From Candidatus Hodarchaeum mangrovi (GTDB lineage: Archaea > Asgardarchaeota > Heimdallarchaeia > Hodarchaeales > Hodarchaeaceae): a stretch of DNA of 30,240 nucleotides. Position numbers and translations under genes: made by a program. Under the pieces are notes generated by a model. The model ran no database searches. It was not told the origin of the DNA and saw nothing but the letters and a program-made list of their open reading frames with translations. Shown here in pieces: positions 1,261 to 24,014 of the stretch (the stretch's first letter is position 1; each line of letters starts with the position of its first letter). The stretch is from NCBI GenBank assembly GCA_016839515.1, contig JAEOUE010000248.1:1-30240 (forward strand), written 5' to 3'.

Positions 1261-1479
1261 ATGGCAAATAGTCGATCAATAAGTATTATGGTATCAAATG
1301 AAAAACCTTCAATTATTATTGATGTATGGAATTCATATTACTTATTTAGCTCTAATCTTGGTGAACTGAAGCATATCTTTGTAGATGATGCGACAATCCT
1401 TGTGTTATTGTTTACACAAGGGGAAATTCGACTAACCATTGACCAAAAAGATCTTTTGAAATTTTTAAGAGGAAATTAA
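1261..1479 (+). CDS. small hypothetical protein (beta-rich)
   Basis: 72-aa ORF about 35 nt after a TATA-like AAACTTTAAGAA near 1218-1229. Protein-like composition (SSNLGELKHIFVDDATILVLLFTQGEIRLTIDQKDL). The start could be the ATG at 1288. Confidence 0.6.
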   Translation: MANSRSISIMVSNEKPSIIIDVWNSYYLFSSNLGELKHIFVDDATILVLLFTQGEIRLTIDQKDLLKFLRGN

Positions 1480-1531
1480 AATGCAAACTAAACAAACAAA
1501 TCAAACACAACTAATCAGCGAGGTAAAAAAC

Positions 1532-1918
1532 ATGAATTTATTGACTGAACTAGCACTGATTATCTTAGGATTGATTGTCTTAGGAATAATGTACTTAATT
1601 TTAAACAAACAAGAGGTACCATTTCTTTCATCTACTAATCAGACTTTTATCGTTCTATTCATTATTGGTTTCATGATGTGTATTTTAGCGATAGGTACCC
1701 GTCTGAATTGGACTGGAAATAATTGGATACATCCATTTATTTTGTTAGGAATTATTATTGGAGCACTAATAATCATTTTATCTGCTTTAATATTCCTTAA
1801 TATTTCTCTTCCGTTTAATATCAATGAATATCAATCTCTTTTAATTTTAGGATCTCTTATCATCCTAAAATGGCTTATTTCAATAGGACATCTTGTAAGT
1901 TACATATTTCTGGGATAA
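1532..1918 (+). CDS. small 4-TM membrane protein of unknown function
   Basis: Four hydrophobic segments. The ORF track starts at 1481, but GAGGT precedes the ATG at 1532. A T-rich tract follows the stop. Confidence 0.7.
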   Translation: MNLLTELALIILGLIVLGIMYLILNKQEVPFLSSTNQTFIVLFIIGFMMCILAIGTRLNWTGNNWIHPFILLGIIIGALIIILSALIFLNISLPFNINEYQSLLILGSLIILKWLISIGHLVSYIFLG

Positions 1919-2037
1919 TTTTATCCCTTCTTTTTTGACAACAAATTCATGTCCGAGATTTGATATAAAATTTCTAATAGATCAAAAAATTTTCAGGTTT
2001 ATGTCTAACCAGTTGATAATAGAAATGATAACTGCTT

Positions 2038-2682
2038 TTACATACTCTCTAGTATAACCTTGGGATGAAGTAAGAATTCCTCTACTTTTTTGTAAAACCT
2101 GCCCATATGTATTCCATCCATGACTGCATGATGCCCCTGGACACTTAATGGAATTTTCAATAATCCCCCTTCATTAAAGATTTTTCCCCACGCAAACCGT
2201 GGAATAGAATCTGCAGGATGAAAATTCATTGGATGAATAAAACTTGTAAAAGAAACCCAAGGTATTGGAGTCATGAACAACATATCATCTCTTCCAGGAT
2301 CTTCATTTAAGCTTGGGTTTGATTTCACATAAGTAACCCTCTCTTCAGCTCTTGTTGCAAAATCTGAGAAATTTTCTGTGTACTCAATTGTACAGAAGGT
2401 GAAAAGATCTTCATTCACTAGAATGGTAAAACTTGGGTTTACGATCTCATGTTCAACCACTTGCTCCTTACGAATGCGGTAACGGAACTCTGGAATCGCA
2501 TTCGATGCTCGTGCAATTATGTATACAATAGCTATGGTAAGTGAATAGCCACATTGCTTTACAACTGGTTGAAATGCTGTCACATCGATATTTGCACACA
2601 TACTGAAATGGGGATGATTAAATGTGTTAAATAATCTAAAATGATCCTGTCGAGACCAAGTCTGCATGTCAATATAACGCAT
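2038..2682 (-). CDS. cat: CatA-like O-acetyltransferase (chloramphenicol acetyltransferase type A family)
   Basis: W.R..HF N-terminus, N.IPEFRYR, PWVSFTS, DSIPRFAWGK and catalytic HHAVMDG (compare HHAVCDG in CAT). GGAGGT RBS upstream. Substrate not proven. Confidence 0.9.
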   Translation of the reverse strand: MRYIDMQTWSRQDHFRLFNTFNHPHFSMCANIDVTAFQPVVKQCGYSLTIAIVYIIARASNAIPEFRYRIRKEQVVEHEIVNPSFTILVNEDLFTFCTIEYTENFSDFATRAEERVTYVKSNPSLNEDPGRDDMLFMTPIPWVSFTSFIHPMNFHPADSIPRFAWGKIFNEGGLLKIPLSVQGHHAVMDGIHMGRFYKKVEEFLLHPKVILESM

Positions 2683-3365
2683 ATTTTACCTCCAAGTTAT
2701 GATACACCTCTAAAGTTTAGGTGTCTCAAGAATTTACTCGCATTTATTAGTATTTTTGATATTCCTGTATTCGTGGGGTGTCATATTATATCCAAAAACA
2801 ATATTCTAGGTAAATTGATTTTAAAACCCTTAAATTTACTTCCGATTTATTCAAAAGTAATGATATTGTTGGGTTTTCCCTTTCTCTTTCTTAATCTATG
2901 TTAAATGCTTACAATTTTATTCCTCATCTAAATAAATTTGCTCTTCTATGTCTTAAATCTAATCTATTTTTACTGTTAAAATTACTTGTCAACCCAGTGA
3001 GGATTCAGAAAATTCAGAATGGTTTAATAGGATAATAAAATTGTCTCATAATATTATTGGATAGAACAAATTAATTTAATCTGGAAATCCTTGAAAAAAA
3101 TCTTTTCAGCTTGTTTTTATTTGTTTTTCTATTCAATTCTGTTTTCTGTATCAATAAAATAATGGTTTTCCGCCATTAAGGAGATAATATCATTTAAATC
3201 GAGTGTATTAATACGTTCATTGCAGGTTAATGCTATTCACTTTGGATCATGGTCAATCATAACATTATTAAAGAAAAAGAAAGTAACTTAATGTATAGGA
3301 AACAATCATCCTATTACTTGGATCAGATATTATTGAAGACTAAATATTATGGGAGATAGCTAAAC

Positions 3366-4157
3366 ATGGAAAGACTTCCTCATGGATTAGCTCAATCTAG
3401 TGCAAAGGAAATAGTACAAAATTTACAAAAGATTTCTGGGGGAAAGATTCTAGATGTTGCTACTGAGAAAGGTAACTTTATTACTGTTCTACAGAAATCA
3501 TTGAAAGATTATTCTACGTTTATTGGTGTTGATATTAAATTTGATGATTTAGAATCCATGAAAAAGGATTATGCAGACAGATCAGTAAAATTTTTAAAAA
3601 TGAATGCTGAAAACTTGGAATTTGAGGATGATATATTCGATACTGTTTCATTATCACACTCTTTACACCATCTTTCAAATATTGATTCAGTACTAAGTGA
3701 GATGAAGCGTGTACTAAAACCTGATGGAACTTTTATTATCCAAGAACCATTTTCAGATGGCAATCAATCAGAATCACAAAAAAACGATATGCTTCAGCAC
3801 CATTGGGGAGCTAAAATTGATAATTTACTAGGAATCCCTCATAATAAAACCTTTTCGCGAAGAAAAATAAAGAGAATTCTTAATAATTTGAATTTAAAAG
3901 CTAGTTGCACTTACGAATCAACACACTACATTAAATGTCTTTTTTGTGAAAATAAATTCGAATGTGAAGATCCAAAGAACCACGAGATAATCAATTTTGC
4001 TCTTAAAGAAATTGATCGTGATTTTAAGCGTTTAGAGATGCTAAAAGATCATCCTAATATACAAAAATTGAGAAAAGAGGGAGAAATGATTAAGACACAA
4101 ATTCAGGAAAAAGGAATTACCAGTGCATCAATCCTATTTTTTATTGGGAAGAAATAA
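3366..4157 (+). CDS. class I SAM-dependent methyltransferase (Methyltransf_11/31-like)
   Basis: Motif I variant ILDVATEKG, GVDI, NAENLEFEDDIFD, SLHHL, EMKRVLKPDG. C-terminal H-x3-C-x2-C-x5-C. Confidence 0.85.
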   Translation: MERLPHGLAQSSAKEIVQNLQKISGGKILDVATEKGNFITVLQKSLKDYSTFIGVDIKFDDLESMKKDYADRSVKFLKMNAENLEFEDDIFDTVSLSHSLHHLSNIDSVLSEMKRVLKPDGTFIIQEPFSDGNQSESQKNDMLQHHWGAKIDNLLGIPHNKTFSRRKIKRILNNLNLKASCTYESTHYIKCLFCENKFECEDPKNHEIINFALKEIDRDFKRLEMLKDHPNIQKLRKEGEMIKTQIQEKGITSASILFFIGKK

Positions 4158-6780: not shown

Positions 6781-8490
6781 ATGGTACAAATGACTGGAGG
6801 AGAAGTAATCGTTAACTGTTTAAAGAAAGAAAATGTCAAATTCGTTCACGGTATTCCTGGAGATCAATTATACCCAATCCTTGATGCCATTTACAATGAT
6901 GAATCCATCAACTTTGTTAGCTATCGGCATGAACAGTCTGCTGCGAATGCTGCTGATGCGTGGGCTCGTATTACAGGGCAACCTAGTGTCTGTTTAGGTA
7001 CAGTTGGGCCTGGAGCTGCTAATCTCATTCCTGGGGTGTATGCTGCTCATGCTGATAGCATTCCAATGATTATTCTTTGTGCTCAAAATCAAACATGGAA
7101 TATTTATCCATCCCATGGCATGACACAGGATCTTGATCAAATCAATCTGTTTAAACCAATTACTAAATGGCAAGCGGTTCTTTCCCACTGGAAACGTATC
7201 CCTGAATTGATTCATTGGGCATTTCGCGCCTCGGTTTCTGGACGACCTGGCCCCGTCCTAATAGATTGTCCCTCAGATGTTTTATTTTCAAAAAATGAAA
7301 TAAATGAGTTAAATCGTCCAATACTTGAACCTCACCAGTATCGCCACCTTACTAACCCTTCTGCTCCTCCGAAAGTGCTTGAAAAAGCCGTTGAAATACT
7401 TTTACACGCTGAAAATCCAATTATTCATGTTGGAGGTGGGGGGCTTGCTGCGAATGCTTCACCTGAAATTAGCGCTTTAGCAGAATATCTTCAGATTCCT
7501 GTGACTACAAGTGTCTTTGCCCGTGGTATTTTACCTGATGATCATCCCTTACTTCTGCTTCCAGTTAGCTATGGAGCAATTGCTGCACAATCGTGTGCAG
7601 ATGTAATTGTGCTAATTGGTGGACGTATGGGAGATATGGAGAATTGGGGACGTCCCCCATTTTGGAATGAAGAAAGTAAAATTATTCAAATTGATATTGA
7701 ACCTCAAAATATTGGATTAAATACTAAAATCGAATTAGGGATTGTTGGTGATGCTAAACTTACAATCAGTGAATTATTCGCAATTGTAAAACAAAAAATG
7801 AACCAGTTTGAAAAGCGAGAGATCTTAGCTGAATATAAAGCAACTGAAAAATCTTGGTTAGATGAGTATGAAGCTTTAGGACGATCAAATAAAACACCTT
7901 TACATCCTTTAAGAGCTATAAAGGAGATTCGAGATTTTTTCCCAAGAGATGCCATTACAATCGTTGACGGAGGAAATACAGGTATCTGGTGTCATTACTT
8001 AAATCGTGTGTATGAACCACGAACCTTTTTATGGGCAGGTGATTCTGGACATCTAGGTGTTGGAATAGGTTATGCGATTGGATCAAAATTAGCTAAACCA
8101 AACAAAAAGGTATATGCTATTATGGGTGATGGTTCATTTATGTTCAATGTTCAAGATTTAGAAACAGCAAGACGACTAGGGCTTCATTTTACTGTATGTA
8201 TTTTGAATGATGGTGCATATGGTATGATTAAAGCAGGTCAAAAAGTAGCTTATGACAAACGATATATTGGTGTAGACTTTTTTGATGTTCGTTATGATCA
8301 AATAGCTCAAGCAATGGACTGCTTCGGAATTCGAGTTACAGAACCATCTAAAATCAGATCAGCTTTACAAGCTGCAGAGGAATCGGACAAACCCGCAGTT
8401 ATTGACTTTGTTATTGATAGAGAAATTAATCTCGAACCACCTGATTTTAGTACATTAGCAGGTATCTGGTTAGAAGGATGTCTAGATTAA
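6781..8490 (+). CDS. thiamine-diphosphate-dependent enzyme (acetolactate synthase-like superfamily; possibly 2-hydroxyacyl-CoA lyase/IlvBL-like)
   Basis: MTGG start, RHEQ (catalytic Glu), GPG..N, GRPGPV.ID.P.D and ThDP motif GDGSF...ND..YGMI. GGTGA at 6766-6770 favours ATG 6781 over 6772. Confidence 0.88.
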   Translation: MVQMTGGEVIVNCLKKENVKFVHGIPGDQLYPILDAIYNDESINFVSYRHEQSAANAADAWARITGQPSVCLGTVGPGAANLIPGVYAAHADSIPMIILCAQNQTWNIYPSHGMTQDLDQINLFKPITKWQAVLSHWKRIPELIHWAFRASVSGRPGPVLIDCPSDVLFSKNEINELNRPILEPHQYRHLTNPSAPPKVLEKAVEILLHAENPIIHVGGGGLAANASPEISALAEYLQIPVTTSVFARGILPDDHPLLLLPVSYGAIAAQSCADVIVLIGGRMGDMENWGRPPFWNEESKIIQIDIEPQNIGLNTKIELGIVGDAKLTISELFAIVKQKMNQFEKREILAEYKATEKSWLDEYEALGRSNKTPLHPLRAIKEIRDFFPRDAITIVDGGNTGIWCHYLNRVYEPRTFLWAGDSGHLGVGIGYAIGSKLAKPNKKVYAIMGDGSFMFNVQDLETARRLGLHFTVCILNDGAYGMIKAGQKVAYDKRYIGVDFFDVRYDQIAQAMDCFGIRVTEPSKIRSALQAAEESDKPAVIDFVIDREINLEPPDFSTLAGIWLEGCLD

Positions 8491-8568
8491 GTTAAAAAGT
8501 AATAATTGGATTTAAAAGAAAATTCTGAGGAAAATCTGGATCTATTGACTGGCAAAGGTACTGAAAAA

Positions 8569-9813
8569 TTACTCATTTTCGAATGTAAAAACTGCTTTCA
8601 CAACATGATACTTATCCTTTTTCATTGAGTATTTCAATGCTTTCTTGTATTCACTTGGAAAACGAAAATGATGCGTTATCATCCATGAAAGGTCAACTTT
8701 TTTGTTACTAAGCATTCGTAAAGCAATATCAAATGCATGTTCATTTTTTGACTTATATGTTTCCATACAGGATCCAAATGACCCTACTATTTGTAGTTCC
8801 CGTGCCCAAACTAGTGACCAATCCACATTGATCCTATGGGGATTTCCAATCAATACTAGTTTTCCCCCTGCCTTTGTTAGACGTAAAGCATCCTCAATGG
8901 TATTTGATAATCCCACACATTCATAAATCATATCAGCACCTCCACCCACTGGTAATGGTTTTTTCTCTAAAATTGGTTTATACTTTCTTATTTTTAATTC
9001 ATTAGCAAGAGAATTATAATAATACTTTCCAACTTTAACAAACTTATTTGCTCCTCCTTTTTCAACCGCTAATTTTCCTCGTTCTTCATTTGTATCTAGG
9101 GCAATAATTTTTGCTTTACTTCCTAAGGCTCGTAGAGCACTTAGAACCATTAATCCTATTACTCCTGTTCCTATTACAATAACTGTATCAGAGTCTTTAG
9201 GAAAATTCCTTATAACTGCATGAAGGCCAATTGTGAATGGTTCCACTAATACTGCATTTAGATCACTTACATTTTCAGGAACCCTATACACCTGTGTCTG
9301 ATGAGCTAAATATGCCGAACTAAATGCTCCACCAGTTGAATTACACCACCCAATATCGAATCCAGGATTGATATTTCCCTTATCGAAATTATTACAGAGG
9401 ACAAAATCACCATTTGTGCAATTCTGACATAGAGGGGAAATCCCCCTGACACGACAACTAAGGATCGGATCTAAGCTTATTCGATCCCCTTTTTTGATAT
9501 TTTTTACCTCTGGGCTTATTTCTGATATAATACCTACATTTTCATGTCCTAAAACTGATGGAAAGGAACAAAGCGGTTCTAATAAAGGACTTTCTTGAAG
9601 TAAAATTGTATTTATATCTGATCCACAGATTCCAGTAAGAATTGGCTTAACTTTCACCCATCCAGGTAAGATTTCAGGTTCTGGGATATTATCCAGCTTT
9701 GTTGGAGAAAAAAAGTTATAATAGGCTAAAGGAGTTATTTTTCCCAATAATTTTGTAGTTAAATATCTTGGTATACTAGCATGAAATCGAAGTGCTTGCA
9801 TAAACTTCCCCAT
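8569..9813 (-). CDS. zinc-dependent medium-chain dehydrogenase (threonine/sorbitol dehydrogenase-like)
   Basis: GICGSD, LGHE, structural Zn C-x8-C-x2-C-x7-C, LVEP third ligand and Rossmann G.G..G (IGTGVIG). Confidence 0.9.
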   Translation of the reverse strand: MGKFMQALRFHASIPRYLTTKLLGKITPLAYYNFFSPTKLDNIPEPEILPGWVKVKPILTGICGSDINTILLQESPLLEPLCSFPSVLGHENVGIISEISPEVKNIKKGDRISLDPILSCRVRGISPLCQNCTNGDFVLCNNFDKGNINPGFDIGWCNSTGGAFSSAYLAHQTQVYRVPENVSDLNAVLVEPFTIGLHAVIRNFPKDSDTVIVIGTGVIGLMVLSALRALGSKAKIIALDTNEERGKLAVEKGGANKFVKVGKYYYNSLANELKIRKYKPILEKKPLPVGGGADMIYECVGLSNTIEDALRLTKAGGKLVLIGNPHRINVDWSLVWARELQIVGSFGSCMETYKSKNEHAFDIALRMLSNKKVDLSWMITHHFRFPSEYKKALKYSMKKDKYHVVKAVFTFENE

Positions 9814-10434
9814 CTTATTTCATTTCTATAGATTTTTCTGCATTGAGATTGAATTAATGAATCTGGTGTTTAATATAGGACTAATTTTTATCTAAAAAAT
9901 GAATTCTTATATTAATATAACAAATACCATTTAAAATTGGTTAGAAAATAAATCAGCTGCTTATTCAGAATAAAAAAATATGTTCTGATCTTAGGTTTCC
10001 AACTAGATTAGATAAGTCCATAATTGGATACATTTTTTCATTATGAAAATCAAACTTGGTGTTGGAAAAAAACAGATTTCAAAGATCTCTTCAGTCTATT
10101 GATTAGTTATTATGAGTTGAAAAATTAATGGATTAAGAAGCCTTTGTTAGGGAAAGTTATGAAAATATTTTTTGCCACATTGTTCTATCTAAGGCAGATC
10201 TATTCTATGCTTCCTTTTTCTCATTAAATCTTAGAATAAGTAAAATAGGCCTTAATCTTACTTAATAGAGATATTTTCAATAGTAGAAATTCAAAAATTC
10301 TTGTTCATCTTAATCCTCCTTCAGAAGTTACTTTTTAGATTTAGAAAAAACATTTAAATAGAAAAAAGGAGCCTAGTATAGATATTCTTGTTTATATTTT
10401 TTGGAATTCAAAAGAATTTTCAAATATTAAGCAG

Positions 10435-11061
10435 TTGGGGAATGATTTGCGAATTATCAAAGATCCTGAAATTGTTCAAGTTGTAGTTGAACGGGCTAGA
10501 TGGGAAATTTGGAATTTATTGAAAGCTAAAGGATCACTTAGTGCTGATCAAATAGCTGAAATACTGGATAAAGATATTAGTACTATCTATCGTCATTTAA
10601 AGAAACTATGTGAGGCTGGGTTTGTTTTAGAGGAGGAAGTTCGCAAAGGAGACCAAAAATACGTTATTAAAAAATTCACAGCAATTTCTACCAATTCCCT
10701 TTTTCTTTTAAGTGAAGAGGAAGAACGTATGATTGCCTCGCAACCAGGAGAAATTCCTTATCTCAATGGTTTCTTACCAAGAGTTTTAGAAGTTTTCAAA
10801 GAGCTAGGGTTTAGTCCAGATAATCGCAATGAAGAAAAAAAGGCTATTAAATTGATGAGCGAACTTCAAATATATTATAGTGATTTTCTTGTAAAATTTT
10901 TTGGTGATCAGGATGAATTTCCTACATTAGAGAGAGGAGAAGACTTTAATGAAGTATTAGAATATATGAAACTTTTTCTTTGTCAAATAGATGACTTTTA
11001 TTCTTCCAAAATAGAGGAATTAAGAAAAATCCTAATGATAAATAAGATACTTGAAGCTTAG
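10435..11061 (+). CDS. ArsR-family winged-helix transcriptional regulator
   Basis: IIKDPE...R.EIW.LLK..LSADQIAEILDKD.STIYRHLKKL.EAGFV followed by a helical C-terminal domain. TTG start is uncertain. Convergent with the end of the opp operon. Confidence 0.85.
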   Translation: MGNDLRIIKDPEIVQVVVERARWEIWNLLKAKGSLSADQIAEILDKDISTIYRHLKKLCEAGFVLEEEVRKGDQKYVIKKFTAISTNSLFLLSEEEERMIASQPGEIPYLNGFLPRVLEVFKELGFSPDNRNEEKKAIKLMSELQIYYSDFLVKFFGDQDEFPTLERGEDFNEVLEYMKLFLCQIDDFYSSKIEELRKILMINKILEA

Positions 11062-11072
11062 ATAATTGTGAC

Positions 11073-12161
11073 TCAAATTTCCAATAGATCTTCGCGAGGA
11101 ACGATGCTCGTTAGAATACCATCCTCAGTTTTAATAATATCGTCCTCAATTCTTACCCCAAATTTTCTTGGAAGATAAATTCCAGGTTCTATCGTAAAAG
11201 TATGGCCATTAATTATTGGATTAGGATTTGTTTGGACAATATATGGTTCTTCATGGATTTCTAATCCGATTCCATGACCAGTTCGATGAGTAAAATATTT
11301 TCCATAACCCATTTTTGTTATATAAGCTCGTGCAGCCTCATCCACTTCACAAGCTCGTTTATTTTCAATAACTGCTTGTTTAGCCAAGGAATTTGCAGTT
11401 TTTACGATTTTGTATATTTCTTTAAATTTACTACTCGCTTTCCCAAAAACTGATGTAATTGTGATATCACCCCAATAGTCCCCGATTGTTACCCCTGCGT
11501 CAATAACCACAACGTTATCCTTCTTTAATTTTGTGTTTAGACTAAAGCTAGGAAGCTTAGCAGTATTTTCTTCATAAGATACTTCTAAATAGAATTTTTC
11601 ATCTTTTTCAGGTTTTAATTTTTCCTTAAATATGGAAGTCACATCAGTTTCAGTTAATCCAACCTCGAGTTCCATTAAAGTTGAAATAATTAAATCGACT
11701 GTTTTTTGTGATGCTTTGAGCAATAATTTCTGTTCTTCTTCATCTTTTATTGATCTTAAAGAGTTGAAAATCTCTTCAATCGAACAATATTCAAATTTCT
11801 GAAAATTCTGAGCAATGCGATGAACATCTGAAAACCACATTCTTGGGTCAAAAGCAATGGATTGACAAGAAGTATATGAAATCTGTTTGGTTAGGACATC
11901 TATTGGATTTTCAGCTTCTTGCCACCCAATACAATCATCAATCCCGATTTTTTCACTTAATTCAGCTTTAATATATTCAGGTGCAATTAATTTAGGGGGT
12001 CCTTCTTGTTCTATTAGAGTAACCGTAAATCTATCGGTTTGTTCCCCTAAAAATCCGAATAACCAACGAAAATTATATCCTAAAGGAAGAACTAAACATT
12101 GAATCTTGTGCTGTCTCATTTGTTCTTGAAGAAGTTTTAGTCGTTTTTTATTAAAAGACAT
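11073..12161 (-). CDS. Xaa-Pro peptidase family protein (M24B, creatinase/prolidase N-domain)
   Basis: Metal ligands present: IDAG...GDIT, HRTGHGIGLEIHE, TIEPGIY, GVRIEDD. AAGGTGA precedes ATG 12161; the track start at 12203 overlaps oppF. Confidence 0.9.
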   Translation of the reverse strand: MSFNKKRLKLLQEQMRQHKIQCLVLPLGYNFRWLFGFLGEQTDRFTVTLIEQEGPPKLIAPEYIKAELSEKIGIDDCIGWQEAENPIDVLTKQISYTSCQSIAFDPRMWFSDVHRIAQNFQKFEYCSIEEIFNSLRSIKDEEEQKLLLKASQKTVDLIISTLMELEVGLTETDVTSIFKEKLKPEKDEKFYLEVSYEENTAKLPSFSLNTKLKKDNVVVIDAGVTIGDYWGDITITSVFGKASSKFKEIYKIVKTANSLAKQAVIENKRACEVDEAARAYITKMGYGKYFTHRTGHGIGLEIHEEPYIVQTNPNPIINGHTFTIEPGIYLPRKFGVRIEDDIIKTEDGILTSIVPREDLLEI

Positions 12162-12172
12162 GAATTCACCTT

Positions 12173-13360
12173 TTACAATAAAGGGTAATGACATGCTACC
12201 CAATGGTTTTGTTGTTTTTCAATTAATTCAGGTTCTATTTTACTACAAAGTTCATAATCCACAATAGGACACCGAGGATGAAATCTACACCCAGTAGGAG
12301 GATGAATTGCATCAGCTACTTCCCCTTTAGGTAGATTGAAATCGCCTTTTCTGAGAGAGGTTGAGGGAATAGATTCAATCAAAGCTCTTGTATAAGGGTG
12401 TAATGGTTTTAAAAATAAACTTTTGACATCTCCTTTTTCTACTAATTTTCCGACATACATTATTGCCACTTGATCTCCAAAATGGCGTGCTGTGGCTAAA
12501 TCATGAGTAATAAATAGTATTGCTAAACCATGAATTTTTTGTAGTGATTTTAGTAGATCAAGAATACCTGCACGGCAGCTAACATCTAGCATACTTGTTG
12601 GTTCATCAGCAATCAGGAGATCAGGTTGTAAGATAATGGCTCGTGCAATGGAAACTCGTTGTCTTTCCCCTCCACTGACTTCGTGAGGATATTTAAAATA
12701 AAATTGTTCTGCAGGTGATAATCCTATTTCATTAAATTTTTCTAAGACTGTCTTATCCAGAATTTTGTTTTTTTGAAGCCAAGAAAAGTAAAAATAAAGA
12801 ATCAATGCAATTGAGAATAATATTATGCTTCCAAGTGCGCTAAAGTTAGCGAGAGGTCCTTTTATTAGAAAACTGATAATAAATAAAAAGGAGGAAATTA
12901 TAGTACTAATCACCATAATCATTTCTGAATATTTAGCATTTCTAATTCTCCGTTGAGTATCACTGTATCGTACCTTGTCGTGAATAATTAAGGAATGAAG
13001 TACGTTATCACCTAGAGTCATTCTCGGATTAAGGGAGGAAAATGGATTCTGAAAAATTATTTGTGATTTTATGTCGTTTTTCTTCGGAATTAATTCATTA
13101 AATGGAATACTAATTCCTTCCCAGATGAATTCTCCTGCTGTTGGTTTATCTAATCCTACAAGTATGTTTGCGGTTGTTGACTTCCCGCATCCACTTTCTC
13201 CACATAAACAGAAAATTTCATTCTTCTTAATAGCGAAGCTGATATCATCGATTGCATGAACAAAATCGGTCTCTTTTGAGAAAATTCGTTTAAAAGATCC
13301 TTGTCCTACTGGAAAATACTTTTTAAGGTTCTTTACCTCAATTAATGACTCAAGGTTCAT
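12173..13360 (-). CDS. oppF: oligopeptide/dipeptide ABC transporter ATP-binding subunit (OppF/DppF type) with an inserted hydrophobic hairpin
   Basis: Walker A GESGCGKST, Q-loop IFQNPFSSLNP, signature VSGGERQR, Walker B LIADEP, ITHD, HPYT and C-terminal GCRFHPRC...C...ACH. About 60 extra residues with two TM-like segments between Q-loop and signature. Confidence 0.92.
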   Translation of the reverse strand: MNLESLIEVKNLKKYFPVGQGSFKRIFSKETDFVHAIDDISFAIKKNEIFCLCGESGCGKSTTANILVGLDKPTAGEFIWEGISIPFNELIPKKNDIKSQIIFQNPFSSLNPRMTLGDNVLHSLIIHDKVRYSDTQRRIRNAKYSEMIMVISTIISSFLFIISFLIKGPLANFSALGSIILFSIALILYFYFSWLQKNKILDKTVLEKFNEIGLSPAEQFYFKYPHEVSGGERQRVSIARAIILQPDLLIADEPTSMLDVSCRAGILDLLKSLQKIHGLAILFITHDLATARHFGDQVAIMYVGKLVEKGDVKSLFLKPLHPYTRALIESIPSTSLRKGDFNLPKGEVADAIHPPTGCRFHPRCPIVDYELCSKIEPELIEKQQNHWVACHYPLL

Positions 13361-14375
13361 ATTTATCACTGAAATTATTAAATAAGTGGCTATATTCTTC
13401 CTGATACATTAAACACTTTATTAAATGTCCAGATTTACTCGTTGAGGTCAGATGGACATCCTTTAGAACAGTTTTTTCACATATGGATATTGCATATGGA
13501 CATCTTTCAGCAAAACGACATCCTTCTGGTAGATTTCGCATGTCAGGGGGATGACCTGGAATGAAAGCTAAATTTTTCTTTTCTTTATCCTTTACATCTG
13601 GTATTGCAGAAATTAGAGCTTTTGTGTATGGGTGGGCTGGTTTTTTAAAAATAATTGAGGTATCACTAATTTCAACGATTTGACCAGCATACATTATTGC
13701 AACACGATGAGCAATGTTCGAAACAACGCTTAAATCATGAGTAATATATATTACTGTCAAATTTAGATCTTTGATTAATTCTTTAAGGATTTCTAACGTT
13801 CTAGCTTGTACTAAGACATCTAATGCTGTAGTTGGTTCATCTGCAATAATCAATTCTGGTTTTAAAATTAATGTTAGAGCAATAACAATTCGTTGTTGCA
13901 TGCCTCCAGAGAATTGAAATGGATGATCATTCAATCTAGATTTTGGGATTTCCAATTGATCTATAAGCTGCATTATTTCAGTCCAAGTAGTTTCATTCCA
14001 TTTTTTATGAAATTTTAGTGTGTCAATGAAATGATCTGAGACTTTTTGTAAAGGATTTAAGGCATTCTGTGATGCCTGAAAAATCATAGACATTTCAGAG
14101 CCTCTTATCTTCTGCATTTCTTTTTCAGACATTTTTAATAAATTATTTCCTTTGAAAAATATATTTCCTTCTTCGATTTTTCCTCCTTTTAGTAATCGAA
14201 GAATTGCAAAGCCTAAAGTACTTTTTCCACAGCCTGATTCTCCAACTAGCCCTAAAACTTCACCTGAGTTTAAAAAAAGGGACACTTTATCAACTGCTCT
14301 TATGATATTTCCATCTACTGGGTAATTGACAGTCAAATCCTTGATTATCAAGATTTTTTCATCTGACATTAGCAT
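13350..14375 (-). CDS. oppD: oligopeptide/dipeptide ABC transporter ATP-binding subunit (OppD/DppD type)
   Basis: GESGCGKST, MIFQ, FSGGMQQR, IIADEPTTALDV, ITHDL, HPYT, GCRF..RC. Likely start 14375 or 14369 after GAGG; the track start overlaps oppC. Confidence 0.93.
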   Translation of the reverse strand: MLMSDEKILIIKDLTVNYPVDGNIIRAVDKVSLFLNSGEVLGLVGESGCGKSTLGFAILRLLKGGKIEEGNIFFKGNNLLKMSEKEMQKIRGSEMSMIFQASQNALNPLQKVSDHFIDTLKFHKKWNETTWTEIMQLIDQLEIPKSRLNDHPFQFSGGMQQRIVIALTLILKPELIIADEPTTALDVLVQARTLEILKELIKDLNLTVIYITHDLSVVSNIAHRVAIMYAGQIVEISDTSIIFKKPAHPYTKALISAIPDVKDKEKKNLAFIPGHPPDMRNLPEGCRFAERCPYAISICEKTVLKDVHLTSTSKSGHLIKCLMYQEEYSHLFNNFSDKYEP

Positions 14376-14376
14376 A

Positions 14377-15300
14377 TCATCCTCTTTCCCTAAGAAGGGG
14401 ATTAAACTTATCATTAAGAGCATCACCTATCAGAGATAATGCAAATGAAAGTAAAAATATCATTAGACCAGGAAACATTATTAACCAAGGATATAAACGT
14501 ACTTTTGAAAGTGCTCGAGCATCTTGAAGATCATATCCCCAATCGGCGGTTGGTGCTTGTATTCCTAAACCTAGAAATGCAAGCGAAGCATTAGTTAATA
14601 TTGCTTCAGTCATATTAAAAGGAATTATGGCAATTGAAGAAGCTAATATATTTGGAGTAATGTAGCGTAAGAGAATTGTTAGTTTTCCTGCCCCAATTGA
14701 CTGTGCTGCTTTGATAAAAGTTTCTTCCTTAATTTGTAATACTTGAGATCTTATTACTCGAAAATAAGAAGGTGCATAAACTATTGCAGTACTAAAAGCA
14801 ACCGCAGCAATTATTTTAAAATCACCAAAAACAGAAAGATAAATTGCCAAAGTAATTGCTAAAAGTAATGATGGAAATGAATAAATAGCATCAGCAGTCA
14901 TAGTTAAAAGTCTATCTACTTTTCCTCCAAAATAACCTGAAACTATCCCTAATGGTACACCAATCACTAAAGCAACAATAGTAGAACTCATTGCCATTAG
15001 TAATGCGATTCTTGAACCATATATTATTCGTGATAACATATCACGACCAAGTAAATTTGTGCCAAATGGGTGTTGAATCGTGGGAGGACAGTAGCGACAA
15101 TTGGGATATTCAGGACCACAATCTTTACAAGTCTGAGCATAGTGATAAGGAGCTATAATATCTGCAAAAATTGCCATTATTAGAATTATTCCAAAAATTA
15201 ACAATCCTATTGTTAGAGATTTATTATGCATTATACTAGATTTAAGCTTCCTAAAGTGACTTATGAGGGGGATTTCTTTATGATAAGTATCCATTCTCAC
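14377..15300 (-). CDS. oppC: peptide ABC transporter permease (OppC/DppC type)
   Basis: HPFGT..LGRD..SRIIYG.R, EAA-like loop FIKAAQSIGA, LAFLGLG..P...WG, PW...FPG. Start may be ATG 15294. Confidence 0.93.
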   Translation of the reverse strand: MRMDTYHKEIPLISHFRKLKSSIMHNKSLTIGLLIFGIILIMAIFADIIAPYHYAQTCKDCGPEYPNCRYCPPTIQHPFGTNLLGRDMLSRIIYGSRIALLMAMSSTIVALVIGVPLGIVSGYFGGKVDRLLTMTADAIYSFPSLLLAITLAIYLSVFGDFKIIAAVAFSTAIVYAPSYFRVIRSQVLQIKEETFIKAAQSIGAGKLTILLRYITPNILASSIAIIPFNMTEAILTNASLAFLGLGIQAPTADWGYDLQDARALSKVRLYPWLIMFPGLMIFLLSFALSLIGDALNDKFNPLLRERG

Positions 15301-15318
15301 TACACAGACTCCATTGAT

Positions 15319-16335
15319 CTAGTAAACAATTCGAGGATCTAATATAGCGTAAATTACATCACCAAAGAGACTTACTATGCTTACAATAATTACAAAAATT
15401 ATCATTGCCCCTTGTACGGCTGGAAAATCTTTATTTTGTATAGCTAAATACAAATACCTCCCTAATCCTGGGATATTGAAAGTTGTTTCTGTTAGTATAG
15501 CTCCAGCCAGCAATAATGCAAATTGTAAACTGATTAAGCCGATAATTGGCGTAACAGCATTTTTAAGAACATATCGATATCTTATCGTCCTTTCAGGAAT
15601 TCCTCTTGATCGGGCATAGTGAACATAATTCTCCTCCATATGATGAATCATATTTGTTCTCACTTGTCTAGCTATAACTCCTGCAATTAACATTCCTAAT
15701 GCTAAGCTTGGCATAATCAAGTGTAAAAGAATATCTATTGTTAAATCAATTCTTCCACTCAATATTGTGTCAATTAACCATATTTCTGTGTAATGGTTGA
15801 AATCTTCTGTAGCTCCAGCCTTTATTAATGATAAAGGAGGTAAAATATCTAGAATATATGAAAAAATCACCTGCATAGCAATTCCGACAAGAAAAATCGG
15901 AATACTATATATTCCAATTGTATATAGCCTTATTACATGGTCTTTAAATCCCTCACGATTAGTACCTGCAATAGCTCCTAATAATATTCCAAGAGGAACT
16001 CCAATTAAGGTACCAAAAAAAGCTAGCATTAGTGTGGGACCAAAAGCTAATTGGATCTCTTTGACTACATCAATGTTGGTACGATAAGATTCTCCAAAAT
16101 CAAGTGTGAATGCTTGAATTAGGAAATCAAAATATTGTTCTAAGAGTGGTTTATTTAAACCAAGGTTTTCGTTTAATCTTTCTATATGTTCCGGTGGTAT
16201 TTGTGGATTCATAACTGCGACTGGATTTGCTCCTGGAAGTACTCTCAATAGAAAAAAAACAATGGTCACAAGTATCCAGATCATTGGTAATATTAGGATT
16301 ATTCTTGTAATAAAGAAAGTTCTCAAAGACGTCAT
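15319..16335 (-). CDS. oppB: peptide ABC transporter permease (OppB/DppB type)
   Basis: PG.NP, GL.KPL.EQY, DFGES, ARQVR..M...Y...ARSRG, ETTFNIPGLG, D...AILDPRI. Confidence 0.93.
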   Translation of the reverse strand: MTSLRTFFITRIILILPMIWILVTIVFFLLRVLPGANPVAVMNPQIPPEHIERLNENLGLNKPLLEQYFDFLIQAFTLDFGESYRTNIDVVKEIQLAFGPTLMLAFFGTLIGVPLGILLGAIAGTNREGFKDHVIRLYTIGIYSIPIFLVGIAMQVIFSYILDILPPLSLIKAGATEDFNHYTEIWLIDTILSGRIDLTIDILLHLIMPSLALGMLIAGVIARQVRTNMIHHMEENYVHYARSRGIPERTIRYRYVLKNAVTPIIGLISLQFALLLAGAILTETTFNIPGLGRYLYLAIQNKDFPAVQGAMIIFVIIVSIVSLFGDVIYAILDPRIVY

Positions 16336-16380: not shown

Positions 16381-18036
16381 TTATACTCTTTTTTTCTTCC
16401 TTTTTGATAAAAGTACTGATCCAATGATAAATATTCCTATGCAAGTGTAGAAAATGTCGAATCCTGGTGTTCCATCTGCTCCAGTTTTCTCTATAGAATT
16501 AAAGTGAATGTTTTCAGATGGTTCTAAAGAAACTCCTGTTATACCCTTTTGATATGCTATAAATTGAGATACCATTGTAAACAAGGGGACGACTGGAACG
16601 TCTTTTGCAAAACCTTTTTGAGCATTGATAGTTGCTGTCATCCTATCAGCTGCATCAGGATCCGTTATCATTGTGTTTACGTATCCATCCATCTCACTTG
16701 AATCGTAAGCTGAATAACGAGTTGGTCCTACAAAAGGAGCGACATAATTACTTGGATCAGGATAATCGAACCACCATCCAAGTAGATAGAATGGCATAGT
16801 TTGTGCTAGAAAAGCTTCGACAAAGGTTCCCCATTCTGATGACATTAAAGTCACTTCAAAATATCCAGTTGCTTCTAATTGTTGCTCAACCAATTCTGCA
16901 ACGTCTTTCTCTGTATCACCATAGTGTGTTGGTGTATAGGATAGCTCTATGGGATATTTATTTGAAGTTGAGTAACCTGCTGCAGTCATATTGCCTGTGA
17001 CATAGGACATTGTCGGCCCAGCTTCAAAGGCATCAATATGACTTGTGAATATTTCAGGAACCATACTATAGAGTTCTTTATTAAAATTATTGAAGATAGT
17101 GGCAGTTATTTCACTTCTGTTTACTGAAGCTGCTATTGCTCTTCTGATTCTTACATCTGGATGATCAAGACAATTGATAACTAAATATCGAATACCTGCA
17201 GTTTCTTTCAGCTGGAATCCAAGGTCGGGATTATTCTGAATTGTTGTCATTTCTTCAGGTCCGAATTGTCTATTTGCCACATCAACTTCATTATTTTCTA
17301 ATGCAGTAAGCAAGGTTGACGAATCACTAAAGAATTTGATAATAATTTTCTTGTTCTTTGGTGCGGTTCCAAAGTAATTAGGATTTCGGTCTAAGATGAT
17401 TTCGGTATCTTTTGTCCAAGAGGAAACGATATAAGGGCCTAAACCGGCAGGAATAGAATCTGGTTCTCCACCAATTTCATCTACTGATAGTGAAATAGTA
17501 CTAATTGGCCATCCAATTGGATACGTCAAACGATTTAAAAAAGTGGCGTCTGGTGTATTGAGAAATATCTTTATTGTATTTTCATCCACTTTTTCAGTTC
17601 TATTAACAACATCTGTTAATAGAAAACTGCTGTCTCCTCCAAGTGTTAATGCACGATTGAGATTCCAGATCATAGCTGAAGCATTAAAAGGGGTTCCATC
17701 ACTAAAAAATATCCCAGTTTTTAGTACGAAAGTATATTCTTTTGCATCCGAACTTACAGTATATGATTCGACAATAGGACCTTTTACAGCATCAGTGGAA
17801 TCAACTGGCATCTCCATAAGGCCATGGGTAAAATGCATCATGATGGTTGAAGATAGAATGTCATATCCATGGGCTGGGTCCAAACTCATGATTGAATCTG
17901 TTGTTCCGATTACAATTTCGTCATCGCTTAAAGCTGTAGACCTTGTTAAATTCATCTGTAGAATCTGGAATGTCCCAAATACCCCCAAAAATATTATTGC
18001 GACTAATACATAAGAATTTATCTTTTTTTTCAGCAT
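16381..18036 (-). CDS. oppA: family 5 ABC substrate-binding protein (OppA/DppA type) with N-terminal signal/anchor and PGF-CTERM-like tail
   Basis: SLDPA, YTF.LK.G..FSDGTPFNA, G.GPY, RNPNYFG, RRAIA..VNR, W..DYPDP and C-terminus TPGF + TM + KRKKKR. AGGTGA precedes ATG 18036. Confidence 0.93.
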   Translation of the reverse strand: MLKKKINSYVLVAIIFLGVFGTFQILQMNLTRSTALSDDEIVIGTTDSIMSLDPAHGYDILSSTIMMHFTHGLMEMPVDSTDAVKGPIVESYTVSSDAKEYTFVLKTGIFFSDGTPFNASAMIWNLNRALTLGGDSSFLLTDVVNRTEKVDENTIKIFLNTPDATFLNRLTYPIGWPISTISLSVDEIGGEPDSIPAGLGPYIVSSWTKDTEIILDRNPNYFGTAPKNKKIIIKFFSDSSTLLTALENNEVDVANRQFGPEEMTTIQNNPDLGFQLKETAGIRYLVINCLDHPDVRIRRAIAASVNRSEITATIFNNFNKELYSMVPEIFTSHIDAFEAGPTMSYVTGNMTAAGYSTSNKYPIELSYTPTHYGDTEKDVAELVEQQLEATGYFEVTLMSSEWGTFVEAFLAQTMPFYLLGWWFDYPDPSNYVAPFVGPTRYSAYDSSEMDGYVNTMITDPDAADRMTATINAQKGFAKDVPVVPLFTMVSQFIAYQKGITGVSLEPSENIHFNSIEKTGADGTPGFDIFYTCIGIFIIGSVLLSKRKKKRV

Positions 18037-18073
18037 CCAAATCACCTAGTGTGAAAAAGATTAAGAAATCAGA

Positions 18074-22547: not shown

Positions 22548-24014
22548 TTGAGTGTATCAAGTTACAAAAAACCTGACATAAAAACGGAGTTCTCCAGTAT
22601 TCCTTCTTTGTTGTATTTACTAATAGCTCTTGTGCTGTATGCTTTTGGAACTTATGCTTTCATAGATTACATTGTAGATCCAGCAAATGCGAGTGTACTA
22701 GAAGATATATCAAGTGGTCTAGCTGTATTAGTCCCATTATCATTACCATTTTTACCGTTGTTAATTGCATTTGGTTTAATCTTTCTGGTAGTTACCTTGA
22801 TTCTAGCTTATATACTTGTATGGATCATGAGTAAGATTGCTCAAGAAGTCACAATAGCGGTCTGTATCCTTTTTCCATTGTTCATGATTGGTTTTGGGGT
22901 AATTATGGCTGGAGGAGGGTTATTGCTATCTGGTGAAGAACAAGCTGCTGTTTCTTTAATTGGTATTATTGTTGCTGGTCTAGGAGTACTATTTCTGATA
23001 TTTGTCATTTGGAAATTTACCATGATTAAACGCAGTGGAAAATTTGTTGAATTTTCAGCTCAACTAGTACTAGATGAGAAGGCAGTTTTAGCAATGCCGC
23101 TCTTATTAGGAATTTTTAGTATAATCACTGGTTTTTTCATGTTGTTTGGATTCTTAAAAATTGTAAACATTTTTTCAGTCCAAAATACCTCTGGTGAATC
23201 CGAATTAAGCATGATAGGAACTATTGTTGCAATTATCTTTGAATATATATACTTGGTTGTTTATCTTGGAGTCTACTATAGTCTTTCTGCTGGTGTTATT
23301 TCATATGCGAGCGATTGGTATAGAGGTTTAGACCCAGACTTAAATTCAGCAATGAAAGATGTTCGTCAAGTTTTTCCTATTATCATCAAGTTTGCGTTTG
23401 CAATGGCAACAGTAAAGCTGATTATGCAAATAGCTACAGGAGGTGGAAGATCTCAAAGAATGAGAACAACACAAGGAAGACAAGATATGGGTGCTGTTGT
23501 AGCAGGAGTTGTTTTTGCAGCTTTTGCAAGCATTATTATTTCCATTCTCGGAGCAATCTGGATGTTTCTAAACTATTTCACGTTGATCTCAATTGTTCAG
23601 AACAAACGAGGTTTAAAAGATTCCATCAAGGATTCCGCAAAAACAACTTGGAATGCCTTATTAGATGTATTGGTAGGGGAATCAGGATTTGGGTTGGCTA
23701 CATTCATTTTTGCGATCATTAATTGTTTCCTATGGGTTATAATTGGATTTGGTTTTGGTTTAGCAGTCGGCCAGCAACTTGGTTTTGGTATATTCTTTGC
23801 TATTGTTTTTTTGATTCTTGGAATTTTGCCGTATAATGTTGTAACAATGCCCATGAAAGTTGCTTTTCGGTCTTTCATCTATTCTTTTGCAAAAGATTCA
23901 ATCGAAGGATTCAAAAAACCCAGTCGTTTACCTACTGAACTTCGTAATGAATTCAAGACCTTATCTACTAAACCAAGGAAACGTGGCATGACAGATCCTA
24001 CAAGATATTTCTAA
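22548..24014 (+). CDS. polytopic membrane protein resembling choline-transporter-like (CTL/SLC44/Pns1) and DUF6159 proteins
   Basis: About 9-10 hydrophobic segments. Motifs IKRSGKFVEFSAQLVLDEKAVLAMP, AGVISYASDWY and AIWMFLNYFTLISIVQNKRGLKDSIKDS. TTG start after GGTGA. The CDS is secure; the family call is by eye. Confidence 0.55.
   Translation: MSVSSYKKPDIKTEFSSIPSLLYLLIALVLYAFGTYAFIDYIVDPANASVLEDISSGLAVLVPLSLPFLPLLIAFGLIFLVVTLILAYILVWIMSKIAQEVTIAVCILFPLFMIGFGVIMAGGGLLLSGEEQAAVSLIGIIVAGLGVLFLIFVIWKFTMIKRSGKFVEFSAQLVLDEKAVLAMPLLLGIFSIITGFFMLFGFLKIVNIFSVQNTSGESELSMIGTIVAIIFEYIYLVVYLGVYYSLSAGVISYASDWYRGLDPDLNSAMKDVRQVFPIIIKFAFAMATVKLIMQIATGGGRSQRMRTTQGRQDMGAVVAGVVFAAFASIIISILGAIWMFLNYFTLISIVQNKRGLKDSIKDSAKTTWNALLDVLVGESGFGLATFIFAIINCFLWVIIGFGFGLAVGQQLGFGIFFAIVFLILGILPYNVVTMPMKVAFRSFIYSFAKDSIEGFKKPSRLPTELRNEFKTLSTKPRKRGMTDPTRYF

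Follow-up and report, generated by a model that had tools for sequence, protein, structure and literature searches.

The window (the whole 30,240-nucleotide stretch of DNA that was analyzed) carries on its minus strand an operon encoding a family-5 solute-binding protein (SBP), two BPD_transp_1 permeases, an OppD-type ATPase, and the OppF-type ABC ATPase that is the subject of this analysis (Table 1). The order SBP-OppB-OppC-OppD-OppF was kept in all nine loci for which flanks were fetched, as far as the contigs reach. The adjacency of the M24 metallopeptidase gene to the orthologous operons is not conserved. An NCBIfam scan of the binding protein returned no C-terminal sorting-signal model.

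Table 1. Features of the importer operon and of the OppF-type protein, in positions of the window
Feature	Residues	Position	Strand	Basis and remarks
M24 metallopeptidase (prolidase-like) gene		11073..12203	minus	Overlaps end of OppF-type gene
OppF-type ABC ATPase gene		12173..13369	minus	398 aa from GTG; ABC_tran 4.3e-27, oligo_HPY 7.5e-17
OppD-type partner ATPase		13350..14426	minus	Without insert and without hydrophobic window
OppC-type permease		14377..15300	minus	Expected OppF docking partner by analogy with DppC-DppF
OppB-type permease		15319..16335	minus	
Family-5 solute-binding protein		16381..18045	minus	N-terminal signal-like segment, C-terminal hydrophobic anchor
Walker A	57-65	13175..13201	minus	Sequence motif and alignment
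First helical-subdomain helix	119-129	12983..13015	minus	Contains invariant H125; AF2 and alignment
Insert (73 aa; boundaries approximate)	133-205	12755..12973	minus	Absent from solved Opp/Dpp ATPases
Basic stalk, proposed cytoplasmic	136-149	12923..12964	minus	First part of helix 136-168; ends at E149
Hydrophobic helix 1	150-169	12863..12922	minus	KD, charge, periodicity of conservation
Turn (KGPLAN), proposed outside	170-175	12845..12862	minus	Acidic in most homologs
Hydrophobic helix 2	176-198	12776..12844	minus	KD 2.19, conserved Y192, periodicity
Basic return flank	199-205	12755..12775	minus	K/R 1.0, 0.57, 0.84 at positions 200-202
ABC signature	231-238	12656..12679	minus	Sequence motif and alignment
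Walker B and catalytic glutamate	251-256	12602..12619	minus	Sequence motif and alignment
Four invariant cysteines, C-terminal oligo_HPY domain	C361, C367, C375, C393	12191..12289	minus	

The database copy of the OppF-type protein (P0003) is 395 residues long, which fits an ATG start at residue 4 (nucleotide 13360). PF00005 (ABC_tran) scored 95.8 bits against a cut-off of 25, and PF08352 (oligo_HPY) scored 61.9 bits against 27.1 at residues 310 to 370. The 137-position ABC_tran profile, aligned from position 2 to its end, was spread over residues 41 to 259, which indicates that the ATPase domain is stretched by an insert. NCBIfam models also matched the protein in two stretches, and the scores stayed under every equivalog cut-off (NF011659, 256.8 bits versus 540; NF043071, 242.1 versus 660), so that the protein is not assigned as an OppF/DppF equivalog and the term "OppF-type" refers to gene position only. 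The initial annotation had described an intact frame with preserved ATPase motifs, and both hold for the 398-residue open reading frame: K63, Q107, S232-G233-G234, D255-E256, and H289 are all present and do not vary across an alignment of 49 sequences. Judged by these motifs, the ATPase remains catalytically complete despite the insert. The four C-terminal cysteines align with the [4Fe-4S] ligands of Escherichia coli DppF (query residue 393 corresponds to residue 323 of 8z1v_D); the ligand cysteines of DppD and DppF are given in PMC12136057.

The distance from Walker A to the SGG motif is 175 residues, versus 111 in the neighboring OppD-type ATPase, and the 64 extra residues agree with the approximately 60 reported in the initial annotation. 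Alignments by phmmer to solved Opp/Dpp ATPases stop at query residue 132 and resume at residue 206 (chain residues 121 and 130 of 8j5q_D), which places the insert after helix 1 of the helical subdomain and before the helix that precedes the signature motif. The interval first proposed, 12761-12979, encodes residues 131 to 203, versus approximately 133 to 205 for the insert. The two hydrophobic stretches of about 20 residues that had been pointed out were recovered as uncharged segments of 20 and 23 residues (150 to 169 and 176 to 198). With a Kyte-Doolittle (KD) value of 1.6 over stretches of at least 19 residues as the threshold for a membrane stretch, the best 19-residue windows reached 2.62 (residues 151 to 169) and 2.19 (residues 173 to 191), versus a maximum of 1.43 in OppD. 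Hessa-type sums for the two windows were −2.8 and −0.7 kcal/mol; both hydropathy scales are simple ones. The frame is open over the 73 codons of the insert at 33% G+C, for which hand arithmetic gives a chance below 1% in random sequence; together with the presence of the insert in every close homolog examined, this argues for more than chance.

The source genome, a metagenome-assembled bin, comprises 348 contigs and shows 6% contamination, a setting in which the insert might be suspected to be an artefact of assembly or annotation, or else to be neutral, functionless, and recent. Contigs from two other studies (X2 and X4) nevertheless bridge the insert with 0 gaps and 0 to 2 differences, which settles the question of misassembly that had been raised at the outset, and the stretch was present in 20 runs of six studies. 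Single bridging contigs were found in X2 and X4 only; runs X6 and X7 cover the stretch in short pieces only. Selective patterns, described below, extend over all 48 homologs, the most distant of which share 49% identity, and there are no meaningful repeats at the flanks. As far as the sequence data reach, an artefact or neutral insertion is refuted, and we give it practically no weight. An origin of the insert from a mobile element was considered separately and rejected, there being neither direct nor inverted repeats of any significance on its two sides. None of the listed carriers of the stretch was an RNA run, and one RNA run from the study of X8 contained almost no matching words.

A whole-protein search listed 120 matches, comprising P0003 (the window's own protein), 71 proteins of 650 to 696 residues in which two ATPase domains are fused, and 48 proteins shorter than 600 residues, which were all retained as single-domain homologs. 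All 48 (397 to 569 residues, 49 to 65% identity) carry the insert at the same site, with lengths of 71 to 137 residues. Both helices reached a KD value of 1.6 in 46 of them; in P0026 and P0029 only the first helix did. In related genomes, hydrophobic blocks between the Q-loop and SGG were found at 13 of 13 loci, with a gap of 121 to 189 residues. The named sources of the insert-bearing homologs were exclusively Asgard archaea. What the initial annotation had described from one sequence is, on this comparison of sequences, a whole family across the Asgard archaea and no oddity of one gene. The records that name such proteins label them ordinary ATP-binding proteins.

The distribution of the trait is patchy. 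When 10 candidates were scored per genome, insert-bearing orthologs were found in 9 of the 21 further genomes from the genus and in about 16 of the 400 genomes of a phylum sample, and other Opp operons in the same genome lack the insert, from which it follows that the hairpin is not generally required. Residues 105 to 245 were also compared by HMMER with 1.84 billion representatives; among the best 150 matches, only P0033, P0034, and P0124 spanned the full query, P0133 and P0161 had a longer hydrophobic insert, P0158 was a fragment, and the other 144 matched the flanks only. A word search with residues 128 to 212 matched only the window's own protein, and it was the whole-protein search that brought out the family. 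The protein atlas returned generic Opp-type clusters only, and a search of genome contigs for loci related to P0001 yielded only three bacterial ABC loci with no relation to it (L023-L025).

Insert length was 71 to 74 residues in 37 of the 49 sequences, and in the other 12 the turn was enlarged by 6 to 64 residues, the longer variants being expanded at that point. Charge, identity, and periodicity were computed for the 37 sequences in which the span from 126 to 216 is 89 to 92 residues long. Lysine and arginine averaged 4.19 in the N-terminal flank and 2.73 in the C-terminal flank, versus 0.22 in the turn, where aspartate and glutamate averaged 1.41; within the helices the corresponding means were 0.14 and 0.32 for K+R and 0.03 and 0 for D+E, so that charged residues are virtually absent from the first helix. 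K/R frequencies were 0.70 to 0.86 at positions 139, 140, 141, and 143 of the stalk, E149 was present in 36 of the 37 homologs, and position 192 of the second helix was Y in 34 and F in 3. The short KGPLAN turn between basic flanks, read earlier as conforming to the positive-inside rule, thus has its counterpart across the family, and the pattern agrees with cytoplasmic ends of the insert. Pairwise identity was 27 to 31% in the hairpin helices versus 69 to 76% in the ATPase core, so that what is retained is composition and length and not the sequence itself, the pattern of helices that face lipid. In both helices, conservation is concentrated on a single face (periodicity index of 2.48 and 2.51, reached by 21 and 3 of 1,000 permutations, respectively), and small residues recur at positions 155, 159, 166, 181, and 188. 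Low identity combined with a single conserved face fits, at the level of sequence, a packing of the two helices on each other.

It is conceivable that the insert is instead a soluble hydrophobic arm making cytoplasmic contacts with OppD, another OppF, or a regulator. The OppD-like paralogs L002 and L033 hold hydrophilic, coiled-coil-like inserts of 60 to 75 residues in the same loop, and these charged segments indicate that the site tolerates arms that do not enter the membrane. In the OppF-type protein, however, 43 nearly charge-free residues with KD values above 2 would be insoluble if exposed, basic flanks around an acidic turn have no rationale in the cytosol, and the conservation is of composition only, not of sequence. 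We consider such an arm very unlikely.

AlphaFold2 (AF2) predicted a confident helical hairpin, with straight helices of 33 and 30 residues at 136 to 168 and 172 to 201 and a pLDDT of 92 to 96 over the block. Two helices were predicted in most variants; the 137-residue insert of P0019 was predicted to form four helical elements. If both ends of the insert stay cytoplasmic, the number of crossing helices must be even, and four is even; the middle two elements of P0019 may cross the membrane or may form a domain outside. The cytoplasmic ends are equally compatible with a hairpin that is embedded but monotopic or re-entrant, dipping into the cytoplasmic leaflet or the interface as an amphipathic or hydrophobic anchor, and the tests so far fit crossing and dipping alike. 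The turn, of six residues in most sequences, is also very short, as such a dip would have it. Against a dip, the two stretches are of bilayer-spanning length, uniformly apolar, and not amphipathic, the predicted helices are straight over their whole length, and the polar, acidic turn would be hard to fit in the bilayer core, particularly in the 12 sequences in which it is enlarged. We therefore regard a monotopic or re-entrant arrangement as improbable, if less so than a soluble arm.

The reading that we favor, with a probability of roughly 0.75, is that the insert is a true transmembrane hairpin with cytoplasmic ends and an outside turn, and that it anchors OppF covalently to the bilayer, the most likely site being the periphery of OppC. 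The insert, its charge pattern, its conservation, and its predicted fold were computed, whereas insertion into the membrane, placement next to OppC, and the function of the hairpin are what we infer from them. The earlier proposal of a transmembrane hairpin that would anchor its own ATPase is accordingly supported in silico by hydrophobicity, charge, fixed length, periodicity, and the AF2 hairpin, and also by an insertion point next to a helix that contacts the transmembrane domain, by independent assemblies, and by the presence of the hairpin in all close homologs examined. None of the computational outcomes that the initial annotation had named as refuting its proposal was obtained.

In the proposed arrangement, the hairpin would interrupt the loop that follows helix 119-129, with which the helical subdomain of OppF begins. 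From the ATPase, helix 136-168 would emerge as the basic stalk, place the conserved E149 at the surface of the membrane, and cross the bilayer at residues 150 to 169; after the turn, helix 172-201 would return across it at residues 176 to 198 and reenter the ATPase via the K/R-rich flank, approximately 8 residues ahead of the core helix that follows. The exit direction of the hairpin from the ATPase was taken from the DppF alignment and the contact list in PMC12136057, where E124 and N113 of DppF make polar contacts to DppC. The equivalent residues here are the invariant H125 and, just upstream of helix 119-129, N114. The insert starts 8 residues past H125, which puts the site on the membrane-facing side. 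OppF would otherwise work within an ordinary SBP-OppB-OppC-OppD-OppF importer, and the periphery of OppC is proposed as the anchor site because OppC is the permease on which OppF-type subunits dock. A complex prediction of OppB, OppC, and residues 1 to 309 of OppF, made with alignments, scored 0.39, versus 0.45 for a control in which OppB was replaced, and gave no contacts; it counts neither for nor against binding. There is no sign of a conserved OppC interface in the helices, and the earlier suggestion that the ATPase adds two helices to the membrane complex could thus be wrong even if the hairpin is membrane embedded.

For the transmembrane hairpin, the favored role would be to stabilize the assembly of OppF or to retain this subunit. 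Mechanical or regulatory coupling may be a second role, because the helical subdomain rotates in the ATP cycle; in DppBCDF it turns by about 20 degrees according to PMC12136057. A more far-reaching version, which we think possible but unlikely, is that the hairpin is a rigid extension of the helical subdomain into the bilayer, acting as a transmission element in addition to the coupling helix, and that it is one of several independent acquisitions in Asgard archaea. If so, the hairpin would either convey ATP-driven motion directly to the membrane portion of OppC or let the ATPase be gated by the state of the membrane. Membrane segments would then have been gained independently after the Q-loop (OppF), before the Q-loop (L009), and at the N terminus (L002 and L006), a lineage-wide trend in which importer ATPases become hard-wired into the membrane.

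The ATPase subunits of binding-protein-dependent ABC importers are the textbook case of motor domains that are soluble and attached at the periphery. That a conserved family has a hairpin of bilayer length within the ATPase fold suggests that the helical subdomain can bear predicted membrane helices while the catalytic motifs stay intact. Such proteins offer a test case for the assembly and cohesion of importer subunits, for the targeting and insertion of a protein with a cytosolic domain on either side of the hairpin, and for the question of whether motion of the helical subdomain can reach the membrane without passing through the coupling helix. For annotation, the insert-bearing OppF proteins would have to be included wherever Asgard membrane proteins are counted by topology.

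Full-text searches, which covered the literature in part and included peptide uptake in Asgard archaea, returned no description of membrane helices in, or attached to, the ATPase of an importer, in agreement with the initial annotation, which knew of no described example. In half-transporters and TMD-NBD fusions, transmembrane helices are likewise linked covalently to an ATPase domain, but they form the translocation domain and sit at a terminus of the ATPase domain. In the Asgard OppF, by contrast, two accessory helices interrupt the ATPase fold, and OppB and OppC are separate genes. The Wzt gate helix, the ABCG connecting helix, and the regulatory insertion of CFTR NBD1 are lineage-specific additions to ATPase domains, some of which touch the membrane surface or the transmembrane domain; they are amphipathic or soluble and are not known to contain a hydrophobic hairpin of bilayer length.

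Three paralogs in the same bin (L002, L006, and L009) are likewise Opp-type ATPases (ABC_tran plus oligo_HPY) with hydrophobic segments lacking a Pfam match. Their segments differ from the insert in place and number, being N-terminal extensions with 2 to about 6 stretches in L002 and L006 and, in L009, some 200 residues that hold 4 stretches and separate Walker A from the Q-loop, which is another insertion site. All three come from short contigs and have few counterparts in relatives; a search with the N-terminal extension of L002 found 3 proteins only, one of them the bin's own.

Among solved structures, the best sequence matches (1.7e-92) were OppD (Rv1281c) and DppD of Mycobacterium tuberculosis, from OppABCD and DppABCD (8j5q_D and 8wd9_D), which have Opp-type ATPase domains and the same C-terminal domain. 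In these proteins, two ATPase domains are fused in a soluble chain, whereas the Asgard OppF has one domain with an internal hairpin. No PDB chain among the phmmer and Foldseek matches listed covered residues 133 to 205. The match to DppF and OppF from the E. coli complexes DppBCDF and OppBCDF (8z1v_D and 8z21_D; PMC12136057) was also close (Foldseek E value of 2e-26 and TM-score of 0.83 on the target; phmmer, 5e-65 and 6e-64). The E. coli proteins have the same fold and the same order of an ABC ATPase followed by a four-cysteine C-terminal oligo_HPY domain, their gene likewise stands at the end of an ABCDF operon, and the residues in contact with the C permease align; they differ at the site of the hairpin, where they have about 10 residues and the Asgard protein has 73.

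The minus strand of the window carries a full binding-protein-dependent importer operon in the order solute-binding protein (SBP), OppB, OppC, OppD, and OppF, and this arrangement is common to 9/9 loci with fetched flanks, as far as the contig extends. The closest solved relatives of P0001, the last ATPase of the operon, are OppD and DppD of M. tuberculosis and OppF and DppF of E. coli. P0001 lies under all equivalog cut-offs in the NCBIfam scan and is therefore named OppF-type by its operon position. The adjoining M24 peptidase gene hints at peptide as the substrate among the classes peptide, nickel or opine; it is not kept beside the orthologous operons of the fetched loci. Counted from the first possible starts, OppD and OppF overlap by 20 nt (13350-13369) and OppF and the peptidase gene by 31 nt (12173-12203), which suggests that their translation may be coupled; in the database, the OppF entry begins 3 codons further on. 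The C-terminal domain of P0001 has four invariant cysteines, which correspond in the alignment to the [4Fe-4S] ligands of E. coli DppF reported in PMC12136057. The C-terminal region of the neighboring OppD is likewise cysteine-rich. At its C-terminus the SBP has a P-G-F motif, then a hydrophobic stretch, and finally a K/R tail, an ending kept in 6 of 7 orthologs (loci L026-L030, L032, and L034), the L032 protein having the hydrophobic stretch and K/R tail without P-G-F. The ending resembles what we take to be an archaeal signal for sorting and anchoring at the C-terminus; the NCBIfam scan gave no sorting-signal model for it.

Features of the window, of Opp-type paralog loci in the same bin (L002, L006, L009), and of fetched loci (L028, L032, L033)
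Sequence	Feature	Position	Strand	Remark
Window	M24 peptidase gene	11073-12203	minus	overlaps OppF end
Window	OppF-type ATPase P0001	12173-13369	minus	398 aa; ABC_tran and oligo_HPY matches
Window	four invariant cysteines	12191-12289	minus	C-terminal domain of P0001
Window	OppD-type ATPase	13350-14426	minus	
Window	OppC-type permease	14377-15300	minus	BPD_transp_1
Window	OppB-type permease	15319-16335	minus	BPD_transp_1
Window	family-5 solute-binding protein	16381-18045	minus	
Window	ORF	22548-24014	plus	488 aa; no Pfam match at E 1e-5
Window	Kelch-repeat beta-propeller protein	24872-26086	minus	404 aa; nearby
Window	ORF	26231-29020	minus	929 aa; no Pfam match at E 1e-5
L002	extension-bearing ORF, OppD-like	59-1573	plus	also charged insert
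L002	extension-bearing ORF	1604-2908	plus	
L006	extension-bearing ORF	182-1465	minus	
L006	extension-bearing ORF	1462-3438	minus	
L009	OppF-like paralog	2-1474	minus	bin contig C301; at least 491 aa
L028	OppB ortholog	10661-11950	minus	430 aa; stop-to-stop frame
L032	OppB ortholog	9557-10984	minus	476 aa; stop-to-stop frame
L033	ORF with charged insert	7757-9022	plus	
L033	ORF with charged insert	9043-10314	plus	

The initial annotation had described an extra segment at 12761-12979 (residues 131-203 of P0001), holding two hydrophobic stretches within an ATPase whose motifs are preserved, and this description is confirmed. Alignments of P0001 to solved ATPases break off after residue 132 and pick up again at 206, and the distance from Walker A to SGG is 175 residues, versus 111 in OppD. 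The two stretches are uncharged at 150-169 and 176-198, and the best 19-residue Kyte-Doolittle windows of the insert score 2.62 and 2.19, against a maximum of 1.43 in OppD. Every catalytic motif is present and invariant across the homologs. As to misassembly, for which the annotation had pointed to read support, assembled contigs from independent runs span the insert. Words of 31 letters from the OppF gene were found in 20 runs of 6 studies, and contigs from two runs bridge the insert and both junctions with no gap: one of 1240 nt from run X2 (12332-13500; 2 base differences) and one of 1034 nt from run X4 (12273-13306; 0 base differences). No joints or indels were reported, and no repeats flanking the insert were found; the insert is not an artefact.

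We place the probability that this insert is a membrane-spanning hairpin at about three in four. In the 37 sequences aligned in a common register, K/R occupies positions 139, 140, 141, and 143 in 70-86%, E149 is found in 36, charge is practically absent at 150-169 and 176-198, the turn at 170-175 is acidic (mean D+E of 1.41, mean K+R of 0.22), and K/R follows at 200, 201, and 202 in 100%, 57%, and 84%. This is a positive-inside pattern, as expected with both ends in the cytoplasm, where those of an ATPase domain have to be. Between pairs of sequences, the helices are 27-31% identical and the core 69-76%; the insert keeps its length and composition rather than its sequence. Conservation has an alpha-helical periodicity, with indices of 2.48 in helix 1 and 2.51 in helix 2 (reached by 21/1000 and 3/1000 permutations, respectively). 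Small residues recur at 155, 159, 166, 181, and 188, and Y192 is conserved, from which we infer that the helices may be packed tightly on one face with the other turned to lipid. AlphaFold2 predicts helices at 136-168 and 172-201 of P0001, with a block pLDDT of 92-96. The interpretation proposed from the initial reading is supported, for the hairpin itself, by hydropathy, charge, conservation, and predicted helices. In the model of a longer homolog (P0019, 482 aa), the insert has four helical elements (154-186, 195-218, 220-247, and 255-284), which could represent an even number of membrane helices or two membrane helices with an outside helical pair; both ends would lie inside either way.

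PMC12136057 describes how DppF docks on DppC in E. coli DppBCDF, with N113 and E124 of DppF making polar contacts with S196, N210, and N214 of DppC, and how the helical subdomain turns by ~20 degrees between states. In the phmmer alignment to 8z1v_D, DppF N113 and E124 correspond to N114 and H125 of P0001, H125 being invariant in the family. Because the insert starts 8 residues past H125, where the helix bearing H125 ends, the insertion point would lie on that side of the ATPase which faces the membrane, adjoining the permease contact. On the return side, the next core helix in the AlphaFold2 model begins only ~8 residues after the hydrophobic stretch. As a complete ATPase, the protein should power the importer together with OppD as usual, while the segment, inserted as a helical hairpin, would hold OppF in the membrane along the OppC edge, its putative position. 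The benefit would most likely be stable assembly or retention of the OppF subunit. A mechanical or regulatory role may also be possible, since the stalk and first membrane helix form one predicted continuous helix on the rotating subdomain.

OppF relatives with the insert, whose existence the annotation had left to a homolog search, were recovered. Among 120 listed matches, 48 were single-ATPase-domain proteins (397-569 aa; 49-65% identity), and 48/48 have the insert at the same site; where source names are given, they are all Asgard groups (Promethearchaeota, Hodarchaeota, Thorarchaeota, Kariarchaeaceae, and Hermodarchaeota). Across 49 aligned sequences the insert measures 71-74 residues (n = 37), 79-85 (n = 8), or 137 (n = 4), and both helices exceed the hydropathy threshold in 46/48 homologs, P0026 and P0029 passing with the first helix only. 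P0034 (561 aa) and P0039 (569 aa) bear an additional insertion within the C-terminal cysteine domain, P0034 with a precomputed PAS-type Pfam match (PF08448) and P0039 with a threefold acidic repeat. When 400 genomes from the window's phylum were scanned, with 10 candidates scored per genome so that counts are lower bounds, insert-covering matches occurred in at least 9 of the 21 other genomes in the genus, at least 1 of 2 genomes from a sister family, at least 4 genomes from two other families in the class, and at least 1 genome from another family in the phylum (G397, labeled only as same phylum). Hydrophobic blocks lie between the Q-loop and signature in 13/13 examined related loci. The insert of one more full-length match, in genome G188, is charged and non-hydrophobic. 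When residues 105-245 were searched with HMMER against 1.84 billion cluster representatives, only 6 of the best 150 matches were of the insert type, two of them (P0133 and P0161) with a much longer hydrophobic insert; judged by these top 150, the family forms a narrow clade in sequence space. Public databases already contain the hairpin-family proteins, labeled with ordinary names.

Other Opp components also carry additional segments. Nine of the 24 Opp-type ATPase ORFs in the bin have hydrophobic N-terminal extensions of 2 to about 6 stretches, at L002, at L006, and on contigs C151, C127, C117, and C237; in four that were checked, the extension matched no Pfam family, and a word search with one extension found only 3 proteins. 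In the L009 paralog, Walker A and the Q-loop are set apart by ~200 additional residues that include four hydrophobic stretches; this is a second hydrophobic insert inside an ATPase domain, located elsewhere in the fold than that of P0001. At the hairpin's loop, OppD-like proteins of L002 and L033 have charged, coiled-coil-like inserts of 60-75 residues, and one OppF-like protein of this group has a charged insert before the Q-loop; the helical-subdomain loop is an insertion hot spot, for charged and hydrophobic segments alike. The L028 and L032 OppB orthologs have hydrophobic stretches that the window's 338-aa OppB lacks. Membrane segments seem to have been gained repeatedly by Opp components in the lineage. 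The contigs carrying the bin paralogs measure 2.9-9 kb, bin contamination is 6%, and oligo_HPY matches number 24 in the bin versus 2-13 in 12 relatives, so that mis-binning or a strain-specific expansion is a possible source of the paralog pattern. Open frames with oligo_HPY in these relatives are mostly 330-370 aa, and N-terminally long forms are rare.

Full-text literature searches turned up, among the papers covered, no account of an importer ATPase with membrane helices inside it, and none of the listed PDB matches to P0001 covers the hairpin. In the known ways in which an ATPase domain is tied to the membrane, fusion to a translocation domain among them, the helices stand at a terminus, and the inserts in ATPase domains known to us are soluble or amphipathic. 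P0001 is like the Opp/Dpp ATPases in its fold, its motifs, its cysteine-bearing C-terminal domain, and its type of operon. The NCBIfam models for Mollicutes OppF (NF043078) and OppD (NF043079) are long, at 649 and 561 positions, and the signature region of P0001 matches them far downstream, at 464-599 and 347-481, respectively; large inserts ahead of the signature, of whichever nature, thus occur in Mollicutes as well.
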